A stretch of DNA of 64,000 nt from an uncultured delta proteobacterium. GTDB taxonomy: Bacteria; Myxococcota_A; Polyangia; Polyangiales; Polyangiaceae. A program made the position numbers and the translations under genes. The stretch is taken from contig CAVOKF010000004.1 of NCBI GenBank assembly GCA_963696385.1, forward strand, positions 960,001-1,024,000, in the 5' to 3' direction. Below are positions 57,418-63,246 of this stretch, piece by piece. The first letter of the stretch is position 1, and each line of letters starts with the position of its first letter. The notes beneath the pieces were generated by a model. That model worked only from the letters and a program-made list of their open reading frames with translations. It did not search any database and was not told the DNA's origin.

Positions 57418-57819
57418 GTGCGTGCACGCACGCCCGCACGTGCGAGCCGTTCGATCGCACGGTTGCCCGACGCAGATTTCCCGGTGTTTCCGCGCGATCG
57501 ACGGACCGGAGCGATTGGCCCCGACCTTGAGATGGCCGTCCTCGAAGGCGCGAACGGCGCCGGGAGGACAATCATGGGAAAAGCCTTGGTCTTTGTGGGG
57601 ACAACCGCGATGGGTTTGGGGGGTGCGCCACCGCCTTGCGAGTTCCCGCGCCGCCCGTTCATCCGGACGCCGAGGCCGGCTTCGCGGCGGGGTTTGGATG
57701 CACGGTAGAAGAAGCGCCGCGCATCGTGGCCCACCGGGTCGATCGCTCCGCCGGACTCGTCGCCGAAGCCGACGACTCGCGCGTGTGGCTGCACTTCTCG
57801 ATGGATCGTGGCGCGAAGC
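57418..57819 (+). pseudogene. Duplicated promoter and 5' part of the 53150 lipoprotein gene, frameshifted and truncated next to the IS
   Basis: Aligns with ~52993-53402 (gtgcgtgcacgcacgcccgcacgtgcg ... atggatcgtggcgcgaagc). Confidence 0.9.
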
Positions 57820-57944
57820 AAATTGACTCTGAACCGGTGGCGTGGGCAAGGGTTTTCGCGCAGAGAGTTTTCTTTTTTTCGTTTCGGAGTGAGCTGGGTT
57901 CTTAGAATTCAATGGACGTTTCCCTTCTCGGCGCTTGAGGGCGC

Positions 57945-58125
57945 CGGAGCACGGTGACAGTAAGGGGAGCGCTCCGAACGCGCGGCTTGGCGAGCTACCT
58001 CTCGATTGACTCTTCACGTGCATCGGGCAGCGAAGTTCGCGTCCAAGGCCCGAGACGTAGATTTGGATTCGAAGCGGTGGAACGAGACGCAATTTTTCGC
58101 ACGAAGTACAGTCACGTCTCCACCG
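57945..58125 (-). ncRNA. Predicted bridge/seekRNA (target-binding and donor-binding loops)
   Basis: Guide-like matches at 58092-58100, 58061-58067 and 58005-58013, enclosed by stems GAGACGU/ACGUCUC and GCACG-UGA/UCA-C-CGUGC; RNA boundaries inferred. Confidence 0.65.
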
Positions 58126-58232
58126 GAGCGGAGATCGCAAGAGCTTCTACCAATTTGTCGCGTTCAACGTTCCTCCAGATGGGGTGCTCTTAGGCTACGC
58201 GCTCAAGGCGCATCGGAGACGGTCGTGACGAT

Positions 58233-59384
58233 TCATGTCATGGCGACGTCCTCCGAAATCTTGTTGCGGCGAGGAGCCCGCCGTTGGAGTTTCTTGGCGG
58301 AGCGTTCGAGCGCCTCCGCATTCGCGTTTTTCGAACGAGCCTCTCTGCGAGTGCCCTTTGCGCTCGCCTTGGCCTGTCCCACCGGATCGTAAGCGGTGCC
58401 GTCGCGCCACATCGCCCAGAGGACGCCGGCGAGTTTTCGTGCGATGGCGATGGCGGCGATTCTCTTGCCTCGCGTCTTGGCGATGCGGTCGCCCCACTGG
58501 CGAATCGGGTCGTCCATGTCGCGTGACCTGAGGATGAGCCACGCCGCTTGGACGAGCATTTTTCTCGCATACGTGTTGCCCTGCTTGGTGATCGAGCCCA
58601 GGCGCCGCTTTTCAGGTCCGCCTGTCGTCAACTCCGACGGCACCAAACCAAGGTACGCTCCGACTGCCTGCGCATTGCGAAAGCGCTTCGCCTCGTCGAT
58701 CACCGAAACGAAGGTGGACGCCACGATAAGGCCGACGCCAGGAGCGGTGGCGAGAAGTTTCGTGATGGGCTCACGCATCGCCATCTCCGAAAGCGTCCGT
58801 TCGACCTGGGTGAGCTCTTCTTCGACTCCGACGAGCACGGCAAGGAGCGGCGCGATGAGCGTGCTCGTCGCGTCGTCGAGCGAGCTCTCGCGAACCTTGT
58901 TCACAAAGTTCTCGGTTGTGCATGTGGGAAGGAGCACGCCTGCCGCGCGCCCGAGCCCGCGTATCGTCGTCACATACTGCGCACGTGTTTCGACCAGCGC
59001 GCCGCGCACGCTCAACTGCGCGCGCAGGGCTCGGCGGGCGGGAGACAGAATGTGCGCCTCGGGGATCCGTCCTTGGTCTACGGCACGTGCGGCCGCCTCA
59101 GCATCGAGAGCATCGTTTTTGCGCTTGTGATGCGCGACGCCCATCGCACGCACCCGCGTCGTATCGATCATCTTCGCATCGTGCCCCCACGACGTGAGGG
59201 TATCGTGCACGTGCCATCCTTCACGCGACGCATCAAACGCAATCCGCGCAGGTGGACAGTCGGGGCCGATTCGCGACTTGAGTTGGTCCAGCCTCTTCAC
59301 AGAGGTCCGATCGATGACCTCTCCGTTCCGTATCTCGCAATACGCAATGTGGCGCGCTCCAAGATCCAATCCTATGCTCCGCAT
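58233..59384 (-). CDS. IS110-family DEDD recombinase/transposase
   Basis: IGLDLG, KNDALDA, PGVG, AYLGLVP, ITKQGN..AR..LV..AW, AIARKLA..LWAMWRDG. Confidence 0.95.
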   Translation of the reverse strand: MRSIGLDLGARHIAYCEIRNGEVIDRTSVKRLDQLKSRIGPDCPPARIAFDASREGWHVHDTLTSWGHDAKMIDTTRVRAMGVAHHKRKNDALDAEAAARAVDQGRIPEAHILSPARRALRAQLSVRGALVETRAQYVTTIRGLGRAAGVLLPTCTTENFVNKVRESSLDDATSTLIAPLLAVLVGVEEELTQVERTLSEMAMREPITKLLATAPGVGLIVASTFVSVIDEAKRFRNAQAVGAYLGLVPSELTTGGPEKRRLGSITKQGNTYARKMLVQAAWLILRSRDMDDPIRQWGDRIAKTRGKRIAAIAIARKLAGVLWAMWRDGTAYDPVGQAKASAKGTRREARSKNANAEALERSAKKLQRRAPRRNKISEDVAMT

Positions 59385-59598
59385 GATCGATCTCCCTTCG
59401 GCCCCCACTTCGCTTTGTGCCTTTGAGCACGCCGGGGTGTCGGATGGATAATCCAGCGGGAGGTCGGTCGCTATTTTCGATGACCGACGACCGGCACGGG
59501 GGCTGCTCTCGAGACGCCCCGCGATCGATCTCGAGGCTGCGGCACCCGTGCCGCGCGGCGTGCCTGGCGGTCCAGGACGCGCCGCCACCGGTTCATCT

Positions 59599-59705
59599 AA
59601 TCTTTCGCCGATTCAGTGATAACGAACGCCCCTAAGACGCGATATGTTTCCGCGCCCGCTTCCGCGGCTCTTCGTTGACCGATACCCTTTCGACTGGCTA
59701 CTCGC
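59599..59705 (-). repeat. ~110-bp repeat, copy 1 (cut by the IS at its AT core)
   Basis: Reverse complement aligns closely with 63129-63234. Confidence 0.9.
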
Positions 59706-59719
59706 TCGGGGGCAGGAAC

Positions 59720-60718
59720 ATGCTCGGACATACTCGTCTCGCCGGGTTTACTCTCTGTAGCGTTGGCATCCTGGCCTGCGGCACCCATTCGGGTACCCGC
59801 GATGCGGGCGCGGCTTGCCAGACCGTCGGACCTCCTCCGACGTCGCAGCTCCCACACGTAACCGTCTCCGGCGCGACTGCGATGGCGATTCTGCAGGCCC
59901 TGGACGCGATATGCGCGTCGCAGACGCCGCCAGTATCGCCGGGCGCGGCCTATTCGCTTCCGAGCCTCGATTGCAGCGATATTGCCGTGCCCGGAGACTC
60001 CGGGTTCGAGTGTCTGCTCGCGCTTGGAGCCGACGGTGGCTCGCAGATTGACGTGAGCGACATCACGGCATCCGCCGCGGGGGCCACGGACGCGGGCGAG
60101 GACACCGACGCGGGCGGAACCATGCTCGCGCAGAACCTGTTCAATGCGCTCGCGGCGACGGTGTCCATGCCCTGCGTCGATCCGCATGGCGTGCATGTGC
60201 AGCTTCAGAACGTGTCGGTGACCGCAAGTGGAATCCAGTTCGACGACGCCTCGAACTACGCAACCTTTGAGGCGCCGAATATTCAGGTTCGCGGGCCTGA
60301 CGCGCAAAGTCTCATCAGCGCGTTCGCCGCCGCGGGGCTCGACGACTGCGACCCGACGCGCAACCTCTTCATCGTCTGCAATACCCAGGGCGGCGCTCCG
60401 GGCTGCGGTCACGAATGGATGACCCTTGCGACCGTGGGCGCGTCCATATTGGAGCCGGCCTGCGGTCCGGGCGGGGGCACGCAGGCCGAACCGCCGTTTG
60501 ATGCCCCGACGTCGCTCGCGATCTGGAACGCCATCATAAAGGCCGCCTCCGACGCCGGGTTTCAGCCGATGAACGGCACTATCGCGCAAACCACCGTCAT
60601 CAACGCCGACTATTTTACGTGGGACGGCACGACCCTGGCCTTCTTGCTCGTTGCCGACGACCCCACTCTGCCGCCCTCGCCCCCGGGCTTCGCCAGCGAC
60701 GGCGGCGCGGACGAATAG
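59720..60718 (+). CDS. Cys-containing hypothetical lipoprotein
   Basis: ILAC lipobox, about 10 Cys, agga RBS. Confidence 0.7.
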   Translation: MLGHTRLAGFTLCSVGILACGTHSGTRDAGAACQTVGPPPTSQLPHVTVSGATAMAILQALDAICASQTPPVSPGAAYSLPSLDCSDIAVPGDSGFECLLALGADGGSQIDVSDITASAAGATDAGEDTDAGGTMLAQNLFNALAATVSMPCVDPHGVHVQLQNVSVTASGIQFDDASNYATFEAPNIQVRGPDAQSLISAFAAAGLDDCDPTRNLFIVCNTQGGAPGCGHEWMTLATVGASILEPACGPGGGTQAEPPFDAPTSLAIWNAIIKAASDAGFQPMNGTIAQTTVINADYFTWDGTTLAFLLVADDPTLPPSPPGFASDGGADE

Positions 60719-60826: not shown

Positions 60827-61310
60827 CCCCAACCCGACAATGTTGAGGCGAGTCTAACTGACAAAAGAAGACTGGAAGGGCGGTTTCGTGCGTGCTTTGT
60901 TTCGAGTTGCGAGAAACGAAACGTCACGACGAAAGGCCACTTCCAGTGCGGATAGGAAAGCGCGGCTTTGAGGCTCGGGTCAAGGGCGACTTGACCCTCC
61001 GTTTCGGACACGAGAGGCTCACGTCGCACGCGGGACTGGAGTTGGTCCGCCGGTTTCTTGCAAAGGGTCGGCTTGTTCGGCGCCCTTCGCGAGAGCGAGG
61101 GCAAACTCGCCGTGGGCGGGGACTTCTCCTTCGGTAGGTGGTGCTCGCGGTGGTGGCGATGCTGCTCGTCGGCGCGAAGCGACTGAGACACCTGGCCTTC
61201 CTCGGCAGCGACCCGCTCTTTTTGCGATTCGCCGGTATGTCGCGAGCTCCGACGGAGCGTTCCCTCGGTCGAGCGTTGACGAGGATGGGATGGCGCACGG
61301 CGAATAGGTG
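60827..61310 (+). mobile_element. IS1380-like transposase remnant (5' part, frameshifted); left end approximate
   Basis: ERLTSHAGLELV, LLVGAKRLRHL..L.SDPLFLRFAGM...P.ERSL.R motifs split over two frames. Confidence 0.7.
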
Positions 61311-61330
61311 AAGCAAAGCCTGGCGGACGA

Positions 61331-61424
61331 CGAAGAGCCGCGGAAACCACCGCGGTCCCATATAACGCCTTTGGGGCGAGTCCGTTGTCACTGCAACAGC
61401 GAACCGATTTGGCTACTCGCCAGC
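61331..61424 (+). repeat. Repeat copy 2 (diverged, 5'-truncated)
   Basis: gaagagccgcggaaaccaccgcgg...ccgttgtcac...gatttggctactcgcc. Confidence 0.8.
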
Positions 61425-61479: not shown

Positions 61480-62673
61480 TCACTGGTTGCCTGCGGCCAG
61501 CGCCGCGATTTCAGCACCGGACAGAGCTCGTGAATACCACCGGATTTCGTCCAGGTCCCCAGCGAAGTACGTATCATCATACGCAGCTCGGGACGCATTG
61601 TGGGCAAAGCACAGCGAGCCGTTGTTGTTTGAGATGTCCCCCGACGCTACTTGAGAGGCATCAAAAAGCCCGTCAATGTAGATGTTCTCGTTGGCGCCGT
61701 CGTAAGTTGCGGCAACATAGTGCCAGGTATTGAATGACAACGCAGTGGCGGAGATGAGGTTGGCTCCTGGACTCGTCAACTCAAACAAGTAAAAGACAAT
61801 TTTGCCGTTGGCGTTGATCCCTGTGAACTTATCTTCAAGCCCGTTGACCCACTTATTAATGAGGATTGTATTATCAGCAGAGGGGGCTGCCGGGATGTTG
61901 ATCCAGAACGCGATCGTGTAACCGGCCGCCAGGTTCAGCGTGGTGGACGTGGGTATCAAGACGTCCCCGGTCGTGCCGTTGAATGAGAACGCTTGCCCGA
62001 ATTTCCCGGTCACGAACGTGACGCCTCCATCGCCACCCTGGAGGGTCCCATTGTTCGGGCCCACGCTGTCGTTCGCGTTCCCTTCGCCATGCCACAAGCT
62101 GACGAGGCCCTGGGTCAGGGTATCGGCGTCGGCTGCATCCCCGTCCCCGGCTTCGCTATCTGGCTCCTCGATGACGTCCGGGTATGGTGCACAACAATCG
62201 AGTGCATCCGGCTCGACGTCCGGTACCGTCCCGTCCTCAGCGTCTGGTTCTGCGTCCTGTACCGTCCCATCCTTGGCGTCTGGTTCCGCGTCCGCTTCCA
62301 CGTCTGGTTGAGCGTCCGAGACAGTTGCATCCTTGCCCCCGTCCCCGGCGTCCAGTTCACTCGAGGACGAGCTTGAAGTGCTCGTCGAGCTTGAACTCGA
62401 ACCATCGGATGCGTCCGGCTCGGATCCGTCAGACGCGTCGACGGATCCGTCGGACGCGTCCGTGCCCGCGTCCAATTCACTCGAAGACGAGCTTGAAGTG
62501 CTCGACGATGTTGAGCTCGAGGATGGTTCGCTTGAGCTTGAAGAGCTCTCGGGGGAAGCGTCGGACGGCCCCGTCGAAGAGCTTCCACAAGCGGACAGAG
62601 CCGCAAAATGTCCGGTTACGACCGCAAATGCGCCGATTCTGAACCACTCTCGCTTCAAGACATACCTCCGCAT
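61480..62673 (-). CDS. Lipoprotein with Ser/Asp-rich linker and C-terminal LamG (concanavalin-like) domain
   Basis: LSAC lipobox; repeated SSSSSELDAG; GLVSLWHGEGNANDS, WHYVAATYDG, FAGDLDEIRWYSRALS. Confidence 0.85.
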   Translation of the reverse strand: MRRYVLKREWFRIGAFAVVTGHFAALSACGSSSTGPSDASPESSSSSSEPSSSSTSSSTSSSSSSELDAGTDASDGSVDASDGSEPDASDGSSSSSTSTSSSSSSELDAGDGGKDATVSDAQPDVEADAEPDAKDGTVQDAEPDAEDGTVPDVEPDALDCCAPYPDVIEEPDSEAGDGDAADADTLTQGLVSLWHGEGNANDSVGPNNGTLQGGDGGVTFVTGKFGQAFSFNGTTGDVLIPTSTTLNLAAGYTIAFWINIPAAPSADNTILINKWVNGLEDKFTGINANGKIVFYLFELTSPGANLISATALSFNTWHYVAATYDGANENIYIDGLFDASQVASGDISNNNGSLCFAHNASRAAYDDTYFAGDLDEIRWYSRALSGAEIAALAAGNQ

Positions 62674-62955: not shown

Positions 62956-63162
62956 ATGAACCCGTTTCGTGCGCTTCCCGACGACGCCCCGGCCACCATC
63001 CCCGCGCCACCGCCGTCCGAGGCTCTGTGCAGCCATTCTGGACCGATCGCCTCGATCCGGACTTGCGTGGTCTGCGGCAAGCCCATCAAGGGCCGCGCGG
63101 AAAAACGGTCGTGCTCTGGCCGTTGCCGGCGAGTAGCCAGTCGAAAGGGTATCGGTCAATGA
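62956..63162 (+). CDS. Small Zn-ribbon protein (CxxC...CSxxCR)
   Basis: CVVCGKPI..RAEKRSCSGRCR; its 3' end overlaps repeat copy 3. Confidence 0.5.
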   Translation: MNPFRALPDDAPATIPAPPPSEALCSHSGPIASIRTCVVCGKPIKGRAEKRSCSGRCRRVASRKGIGQ

Positions 63163-63246
63163 AGAGCCGCGGAAGCCACCGCGGAAACATATCGCGTCTT
63201 AGGGGCTTCCGTTGTCACCGAGCGGCGAAAGATTTGGCCAGCCCGG
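63126..63246 (+). repeat. Repeat copy 3 (intact, contains an empty IS target)
   Basis: ggcgagtagccagtcgaaagggtatcggtcaa...catatcgcgtcttagggg...gttgtcac...gcgaaagatttggcc. Confidence 0.9.

Follow-up and report, generated by a model that had tools for sequence, protein, structure and literature searches.

RNA-guided recombinases of the IS110 and IS1111 groups are under development as programmable genome-insertion tools, and structural and mechanistic work has dealt mostly with IS621-like enzymes, which belong to the IS110 group. In IS621, as described by Durrant et al. (2024; PMC11208160) and Hiraizumi et al. (2024; PMC11208158), the bridge RNA carries two internal loops, the target loop followed by the donor loop, and in each of them one strand reads the top strand of the DNA and the other reads the bottom strand. 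In the IS1111 group, the account by Siddiquee et al. (2024; PMC11187229) of seekRNA elements such as ISEc11, ISPa11, ISKpn4, and ISPst6 describes a DEDD transposase with a GL-P----S/TG motif, subterminal inverted repeats, a long non-coding region 3′ of the transposase gene (tnp), and site-specific insertion, without duplication, into a repeat that can fold (REP in the case of ISPa11). In these seekRNAs, the segment that matches the top strand lies 5′ of the one that matches the bottom strand, which is the reverse of the order in IS110/IS621. The same features are found in an insertion sequence of ~1779 bp (AGATTAGATG... to ...GGTTCAGAGT(C)) at positions 57825..59603, minus strand, of a 64,000-nucleotide stretch of DNA, referred to below as the window (C4:960001-1024000), from a Polyangiaceae genome of 8 contigs (6.94 Mb, 66% G+C, 96% complete). 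It is very probably an intact IS1111-group element of the IS110 family that encodes, between the stop codon of its DEDD transposase gene and the right end, a two-loop RNA to guide this enzyme. This identity, with a guide RNA 3′ of tnp and a target loop followed by a donor loop, had been put forward in a preliminary description of the window, and it is borne out by family profiles and by a covarying two-loop fold. The element is thus a further IS1111-type member with the expected biology and not a new type of system.

The limits of the element are set by its copies. Identity among the five full copies in this genome opens at AGATTAGATGAACC (59603) and closes at GGTTCAGAGTC (57825), and the junctions of relatives are concordant with these points. 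On the minus strand, where all features of the element given below are located, the left subterminal inverted repeat, GAACCGGTGGCG (59583..59594), is preceded by a 9-nt extension, AGATTAGAT (59603-59595), and the right one, CGCCACCGGTTC (57831..57842), is followed by AGAGTC; both repeats are also present in relatives. They are 12 bp long and identical to each other at 12 of 12 positions, within the 7-17 bp range of subterminal repeats that marks IS1111 elements. No direct repeats flank the element, as expected for site-specific insertion without target duplication. The transposase gene (58233..59384) encodes 383 aa with a DEDD RuvC-like domain (PF01548, 34.3 bits), PF02371 (67.8 bits), and the motif GLVPSELTTG, and the protein scores 216.9 bits against NF033542, "IS110 family RNA-guided transposase", for which the cut-off is 140. 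Residues D7, E55, D91, and D94 are invariant across 32 transposase relatives, and G246, L247, P249, and G255 are invariant in the protein alignment (A1), in agreement with the C-terminal motif of the IS1111 group, GL-P----S(t)G (Siddiquee et al. 2024, PMC11187229). As in that group, most of the non-coding sequence lies 3′ of tnp (407 nt, 58232-57826, vs 219 nt on the 5′ side, 59603-59385). In contrast to the IS1111 seekRNA elements as described in the same source, the transposase is longer (383 vs 330-350 aa), as is the left extension (9 vs 7 nt), the host is a myxobacterium, and the element is known from sequence alone. The nearest named plasmid elements belong to the ISAzs32 and ISMno22 families, at ~32% identity and with none at 35% or above, and PDB chains of IS621 and ISCro4 match the transposase over the C-terminal domain only (E 1.3e-8 and 2.5e-10). 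A tblastn search of this genome at E 1e-5 gave no other IS110-family transposase.

Relatives were abundant enough for a comparative analysis of the non-coding region. Among 8000 candidates scored, 1427 transposase relatives were found at E <= 1e-30, and loci were taken from genome contigs, metagenome contigs, and genomes of the same family. The non-coding region was matched in 7 of 201 same-family genomes, including that of the window, and alignment A2 brings together 37 sequences (the window and 36 relatives). Conservation covers 58095-57990 and then resumes at the right end. On A2, a structure of 39 pairs in nine helices was proposed, in which 93.5% of the cells pair, vs only 26-43% when the partners are slid by 1-3 columns. 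Pairs changed on both sides number 19, compared with 9.0 +/- 1.6 in shuffles (0 of 500 as high). For instance, column pair 31/121 is C-G in 18 sequences and A-U in 16; 50/101 is C-G in 16, A-U in 9, G-C in 7, and U-A in 3; and 159/185 is A-U in 20 and G-C in 14. RNAalifold, run without the proposed structure, recovers the same helices except for the outer stem of the donor loop.

The core of the proposed bridge RNA or seekRNA (57992..58189) is closed by GAGC (58189-58186) paired with GCUC (57995-57992). Within it, the target loop has a two-part outer stem (5′ strand 58159..58176, with 58091-58079; A2 columns 17-35 with 117-129) and an inner hairpin between the two target guides (58103..58147, with the base GAAG:CUUC, columns 48-51 with 100-103). 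This target-loop module (58176-58079) measures 98 nt, near the 82-96-nt peak seekRNAs reported for IS1111 (PMC11187229). The donor loop follows, with a short outer stem (58073-58070 with 58004-58001), which is the weakest of the helices, and a three-part inner stem-loop (58016..58058) that comprises ACGU (58058-58055) paired with ACGU (58019-58016) as well as CGGGC:GCCCG. The guides sit in the internal loops of this conserved fold, as in known seekRNAs and bridge RNAs. As in IS621, the target loop comes before the donor loop. In contrast to IS621, the RNA is encoded at the right end and not at the left, and the strand order within the loops is reversed.

The left-target guide (58092..58101) consists of a variable part, UGCGAA (58101-58096), and a near-invariant AAAU (58095-58092), and it includes the GCGAAAAAU that had been proposed as the first guide. 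Across relatives, a variable stretch of 5-7 nt stands directly 5′ of near-invariant AAAUUGCG. When the 29 rows of A2 with a readable left flank were compared (8 of the 37 were excluded for lack of one), the last five variable nucleotides equaled the last five of the left flank at 5 of 5 positions in 22 rows, at 4 of 5 in five, and at 3 of 5 in two. The mean score of a guide with its own flank is 4.69, vs 1.85 with the flanks of others, and none of 10,000 permutations was as high. This agreement indicates that the first guide had been correctly named, as GCGAA(AAAU). The AAAU itself is a constant of the family and resembles the first bases of the element, AGAT. In two truncated copies of the element (C6:93159-93731 and C6:113588-114105), its first A (window 58095) is a G.

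The right-target guide emerged when the non-coding region of each relative was scanned for that relative's right flank in reverse-complement form. The matches fall at one constant place, after a conserved GAUGA(A/C)CG(C/U)G and ~50 nt 5′ of the left guide. In the window, this guide is CAAAUUGG (58150..58157), which is complementary to the top strand CC(G/A)ATTTG. Of its 8 nt, seven are complementary to the flank, and the last, a 3′ G, to the C of GAGTC. Scored in a fixed alignment frame, the guide matches at 8 of 8 positions in 23 of 33 elements, at 7 in six, at 6 in one (L142), and at 4 or fewer in three; the mean is 7.30 with the own flank vs 3.96 with those of others, 0 of 10,000 permutations reach it, and the result holds with 29 non-redundant rows. 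The complement of CAAAUUGG, CCAATTTG, agrees with the common right junction of this genome, GAGT-CCGATTTG, at 7 of 8 positions, and the odd one is a G:U pair. On the RNA, the segment matching the top strand (58157-58150) is therefore 5′ of the one matching the bottom strand (58101-58096), which is the order of IS1111 seekRNAs. Both target guides covary with the flanks, as in a seekRNA or bridge RNA. Counting readable flanks only, there are at least 26 distinct right guides in the 33 elements and at least 21 distinct left guides in the 29 elements.

The other loop concerns the ends of the element itself. Its 3′ strand, GAAGAGUCAAU (58005..58015), is almost invariant and holds the left-donor guide, AGAGUC(A) (58013-58008 plus the A), whose sense is that of the right end. 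The terminal 6 nt of that end recur in this strand in 34 of 34 elements, and guide and end change together: L055 has the right end GAGTT and the guide AGAGUU, and L126 has GACTC and AGACUC. From this match and co-change it follows that the donor guide had been rightly recognized as far as AGAGUC(A). Its extension to a 9/9 match with the own end applies to the window copy (AGAGUCAAU) and fails in the other copies, whose right ends continue otherwise, because GGTTCAGAGTC is followed by AATTTGC nowhere else among its 16 matches in the genome.

The 5′ strand of the donor loop, AAUCCAAAUCU (58059..58069), is probably the right-donor guide, judging from its position. Its complementarity to the left end, at AGATT, extends over 5 contiguous nt in the window, over 7 contiguous nt in L045 and L126, and over 9 nt with one bulge in L033 and L125, and no clean covariation was seen with the left-end variants TAGAT, TGGAT, GGGAT, and TCGAT. 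In IS621, the pairing designated RDG-RD is discontiguous (Durrant et al. 2024, PMC11208160), so an interrupted pairing of this strand with the left end would not be surprising here. The same strand contains UCCAAAU, the sequence earlier taken for the right-target guide. Thus, the convincing right-donor guide that could not be located at the time is probably the very loop that had been given the other name, and the true right-target guide, at 58157-58150, had been overlooked.

The layout behind the earlier naming places GCGAAAAAU and UCCAAAU in one loop, within a GAGACGU/ACGUCUC stem, and the donor guide in a GCACG/CGUGC stem, with an AT core common to target and donor. All the quoted strings do occur on the minus strand (GCGAAAAAT at 58100-58092, TCCAAAT at 58067-58061, and AGAGTCAAT at both 58013-58005 and 57830-57822), as do the stem halves GAGACGT (58120-58114), ACGTCTC (58058-58052), GCACG (58021-58017), and CGTGC (57953-57949). 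By simple arithmetic for ~820 positions on both strands of the non-coding sequence, chance matches are expected at ~0.003 for 9/9, ~0.09 for 8/9, and ~0.05 for 7/7. By itself, only the AGAGTCAAT match clearly exceeds chance, and the others required comparative evidence. Such a layout can claim that AGATTTGGAT, the reverse complement of AUCCAAAUCU, is found as 8 nt of five unoccupied repeats ending GGCGAA-AGATTTGG and matches 7 nt (GATTTGG) of the common right flank in this genome, that L125 has a similar 7-nt match, and that AT stands at both junctions of the window copy (gcgaaag-at-tagatGAACCGGTGGCG on the left and CGCCACCGGTTC-agagtcaatttgct on the right). The GATTTGG match likely arises because AGATT..., at the left end, and CGATT..., in the right half-site, both contain GATT. 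Across 33 relatives, however, the best 7-mer match of this loop to its own right junction averages 3.70 of 7, and that to the junctions of others 3.69, and L139 carries an identical loop next to a different target, with the right junction CAGTACGG. In addition, the UCCAAAU loop lies between covarying donor-loop helices, and ACGUCUC pairs with 58019-58016 (column pair 150/196: G-C in 33 sequences, A-U in 4), with GAGACGU located in the inner hairpin of the target loop. The GCACG stem needs a base found only in the window copy (58020 is C there and A in the 7 other aligned copies), and the 3′ partner of that stem is unconserved in relatives. An AT core fares no better, as relatives have GAGTC followed by A, C, or G and then variable sequence without AT, and other copies in this genome have GAGTC-CGAT. 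The earlier layout is, consequently, very improbable.

The guides point to a host repeat as the target. The left flank of the window copy (59604..59705, minus strand) is a copy of this repeat, which starts with GCGAGTAG..., ends with GGCGAA, and has dozens of copies in the genome; these are ~100-115 bp long and often clustered in a single orientation. The insertion target is the terminal hairpin of the repeat, AATCGG-CGAA-CCGATT, that is, GGCGAA|CCGATTTGG. The main unoccupied end is GGCGAA-CC-GATTTG, with 33 matches in the genome, ~30 of which lie in the repeat as judged from the upstream sequence; five copies end in GGCGAA-A-GATTTGG (one of them at window 63229) and two in GGCGAA-C-GATTTGG. 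An unoccupied repeat at 63170..63238 of the plus strand, which ends GGCGAA-AGATTTGGCC (C4:1023229, window 63229), is probably the local repeat that had been suggested as the target, and the census of junctions and empty sites supports a target ending ...GGCGAA..GATTTGG.

The copies of the element tell the same story. Besides the five full copies (~99% identity), the genome holds three 5′-truncated copies, one left-end fragment, and several decayed right-end relics. All six left junctions read GGCGAA-AGATTAGATG. The 16 genome matches of GGTTCAGAGTC are followed by CGATTTG in nine cases, by CCATTTGG in three, and by GATTTGG in one; the remaining three run into a nested relic, an unrelated sequence, and AATTTGC, the last in the window copy only. 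In total, 6 left and 13 right junctions fall at one and the same point of this single repeat family. Two orphan relics (C7:2659-2960 and C6:502-809) lack a transposase upstream and retain only the guide-RNA region and the right end; their target loop is intact, and the stretch from ~58021 to ~57950, which includes the donor guide, is deleted. The full copy at C6:22284-24198 is directly followed by a second, partial right end, namely the last 95 bp of a diverged relative, with the junction GAGTC-ATTGAATTC.

These positions suggest how the RNA would be read. The 5′ strand of the target loop, CAAAUUGG, would pair with the right half-site, C-CGATTTG, on the top strand, and the 3′ strand (UGCGAA, then AAAU) with the left half-site, GCGAA, on the bottom strand, so that both strands would jointly specify the terminal hairpin GGCGAA|CCGATTTGG. 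The second loop would read the joined ends of the element, the 3′ strand AGAGUC(A) corresponding to the right end and the 5′ strand, AAUCCAAAUCU, probably reading AGATT... of the left end with an interruption. Upon insertion, GGCGAA is followed at once by AGAT..., and ...GAGT(C) borders on (C)CGATTTGG, without duplication and without a common core of two or more bases; at most 1 bp, the pair that follows GAGTC (A in most relatives but C here), would be read by both target strands. As in IS621, each loop would have one strand for the top and one for the bottom. The right-target guide recalls the handshake guides of IS621 in that its 3′ G pairs with the base that terminates the right end of the donor, and the apparently interrupted pairing at the left end recalls its discontiguous RDG-RD pairing. 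In contrast to IS621, as far as it is described in the sources cited above, there is no CT-like core common to donor and target and repeated at both junctions.

The exact point of crossover is harder to place. The left junction of relatives is always the flank followed by AGAT-(T/G)(A/G/C)GATGAACCGG, and the right junction is CCGGT(T/A)CAGAGTC followed by one further base and then variable sequence. That base is mostly A, but C in five rows and G in two; C is the base of the window's subfamily, in which the window copy itself has A and its sister copies have C. No core of at least two bases common to both junctions, such as the CT of IS621, recurs in the relatives, AT included. A core of AT, GAT, or AGAT was considered and fails in relatives, fitting here only through the GATT common to AGATT and CGATT, and a core C common to donor and target was likewise rejected, as left junctions never have a C between the flank and AGAT. 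Two descriptions remain. In the first, the target supplies the C, and an element AGAT...GAGT goes in between this base and the left half-site. It is favoured by the empty sites: ~30 repeat copies in this genome have CC and two have a single C, and among 40 sites of G201, the genome that carries L049, 27 read ACCGC-C-AGGACGCC and 8 are without the C. In the second, the element is AGAT...GAGTC, the target is without that C, and the 3′ G of the guide is a handshake with the donor. This also fits, and it, or a one-base overlap, agrees with the donor guide AGAGUC-A and with the predominance, right after GAGTC, of A, the base with which the element begins. In G165, empty sites of the L039/L042 element were sought and none was found.

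Under the second description or a one-base overlap, the repeat variants with A or with a single C could be scars of excision. A broader proposal, doubtful though worth stating, is that this clade recombines without the multi-base core of IS621: donor and target would share at most 1 bp, and the invariant 3′ G of the right guide would be the handshake with the terminal C of the donor. The five GGCGAA-A-GATTTGG and the two GGCGAA-C-GATTTGG (vs ~30 with CC) would then be excision scars that mark the crossover, and the abundantly transcribed landing-pad repeat might descend from such right ends; two of its copies end ...CGGTTCAGAGTC.

Sequences from RNA libraries also cover the region. The element stretch is present in peat, soil, and wetland metagenomes from 14 studies, and contigs from four metatranscriptome runs were compared with it. 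Runs X15, X16, and X17 each gave one contig that extends from the non-coding region into the 3′ portion of tnp (57825-58498, 57980-58380, and 57973-58450, respectively). Contigs of three of the four runs have T>C at 58152, which turns the right guide into CAAAUCGG, a perfect complement of CCGATTTG. The X15 and X16 contigs continue into ...GAGTC-CGATTTGGTGG, and the contig right junction is GAGTC-CGATTTGG. Two contigs stop at 57980 and 57973, 12-19 nt beyond the closing stem, which gives a weak hint of a defined 3′ end of the RNA; 14 loose letters beyond 57973 are presumably adapter sequence. The word depth of the contigs was considered as a measure of expression and set aside, since values of 64, 17, and 70 in the non-coding region, vs 2-4 in the 5′ part of tnp, and the parts of the element without cover, are not readable as expression levels. 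This arrangement, shared with the IS1111 relatives, would predict an RNA that is produced and to which the transposase binds.

A promoter might arise at the joint of a putative circular intermediate, where TTGCCC (57844..57849) is a weak candidate −35 with CAGATT across the joint. This candidate was not retained: TTGCCC-18-CAGATT matches at 4 of 6 and 3 of 6 positions with an 18-nt spacer, and the same rule succeeds in 4 of 29 relatives. A scan for promoters gave a single match, on the opposite strand, and none on the strand of the element itself.

Several observations weigh against an intact, RNA-guided element. The −10 of the junction promoter is poor, and the RNA evidence consists of assembled contigs, without strand, ends, or amounts, and DNA carry-over is possible. 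In the fold, the outer stem of the donor loop is only 81.5% paired and is absent from the RNAalifold prediction, single-sequence folds (57822-58232 and 57940-58135) are no better than shuffles (z −0.58 and 0.00), and Rfam gives no match over 57500-59900 at E up to 1. As for the guides, the left flank of L052 misfits its guide, and the low rows of the right-guide comparison are those of the window and L039, where the fixed 8-nt frame misses the guide, and that of L159, whose guide is one base out of frame. The match of the donor 5′ strand with the left end is weak (an alignment score of 5.15, where shuffled ends give 3.91), and the score is reached by at most 5 of 500 shuffles for only 4 of the 17 distinct pairs. 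Finally, the right junction of the window copy, GAGTC-AATTTGC, is one base out of register with its own guide.

Some of these points would suit a reading in which the conserved 3′ region acts as DNA, as a site for transposase binding or recombination, and the flank matches are target sequence copied into the element. The unremarkable single-sequence folds are in its favour. Nevertheless, compensatory changes preserve nine helices, which DNA-binding sites would not need, and the two guides, which flank a hairpin at a distance of 50 nt from each other, read opposite strands. Moreover, RNA-library contigs cover the region, and IS1111 relatives have been found experimentally to need and bind such an RNA (Siddiquee et al., PMC11187229). 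A purely DNA-based role is, therefore, exceedingly improbable.

The out-of-register junction bears on a different question, namely whether the family is RNA-guided but the window copy is crippled or stranded, and immobile, with a right junction one base short against a gene fragment. That junction is unique among the 16 right ends, the flank beyond it is paralogous to C4:1013283-1013402, outside the repeat, and the copy has private substitutions at 59565, 59554, 59433, 58808, 58221, and 58020. Its transposase open reading frame (ORF) is intact, however, and the protein is identical to a 53-member cluster, and the two target guides and all helices are the same as in the other copies. In addition, the guide RNA of any copy could act in trans, as in ISEc11 (PMC11187229). 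A stranded copy is thus rather unlikely, and an intact RNA-guided element remains the preferred reading.

The target repeat deserves a separate comment. The family GCGAGTAGTAAGCCC...GGAAACATATCGCGTCTTAGGGGCG...GGCGAACCGATTTG is represented in the window at 59604-59705, 61300-61412, and 63130-63238, with dozens more copies in the genome, such as those at C4:38211, 42722, 46451, 48600, and 52915. Copies often begin at TAG/TAA stop codons, and same-orientation series are often spaced by 2-4 kb. The family has no match in Rfam, and contigs of the RNA libraries over it have a very high word depth, up to 1024 in X15. In the IS1111-attC group (ISKpn4, ISPst6, and ISPa25), the target is likewise a repeated, hairpin-forming sequence after genes, often in same-orientation series at 2-4 kb. 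In contrast to that group, no integron integrase above the cut-off was found in this 96%-complete genome (13 TIGR02249 matches, the best at 68.5 vs 265 bits). The repeat is therefore not an attC array, and an integron identity was ruled out. The consensus of attC ends, RYYYAAC/GTTRRRY, was not seen in the repeat either.

Two repeat copies (C4:1135715 and C6:110899) end ...GGGGCGTCCACTG(T/C)CGGTTCAGAGTC-CCATTTGG instead of the usual ...TGAATCGGCGAA, and this ending is the right terminus of the insertion sequence itself. The repeat and the last 90 bp of the element have ACGAAGAG...GCGCGGAAAC-like stretches in common, so the two may be related. Several repeats are also followed, right after CCGATTT, by a common sequence, (C)GAACA(A/G)ATCCAAAGCGCACGTCGCCCGCGCGGCG... 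(C2:131504, C4:1137905, C4:1027412, C6:129212, C4:38211, and C7:1399174), which looks like the end of a different element that uses the same landing site. Near the insertion, an ORF at 59720-60718 (plus strand) encodes a lipoprotein-like product, with a signal peptide that includes a Cys, and has no NCBIfam match, and a 397-aa ORF at 61480-62673 (minus strand) has only a faint TafC-like match (32 bits vs a cut-off of 410).

With at least 26 distinct right guides and at least 21 distinct left guides, the clade amounts to a natural reprogramming series. From the correspondence between these guides and their flanks, the reading of RNA positions onto DNA positions would be fixed for one IS1111-type system, where a multi-base core may not be needed. 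For this genome, the same reading accounts for the five full copies, together with the fragments and relics, and for their clustering at one repeat family.

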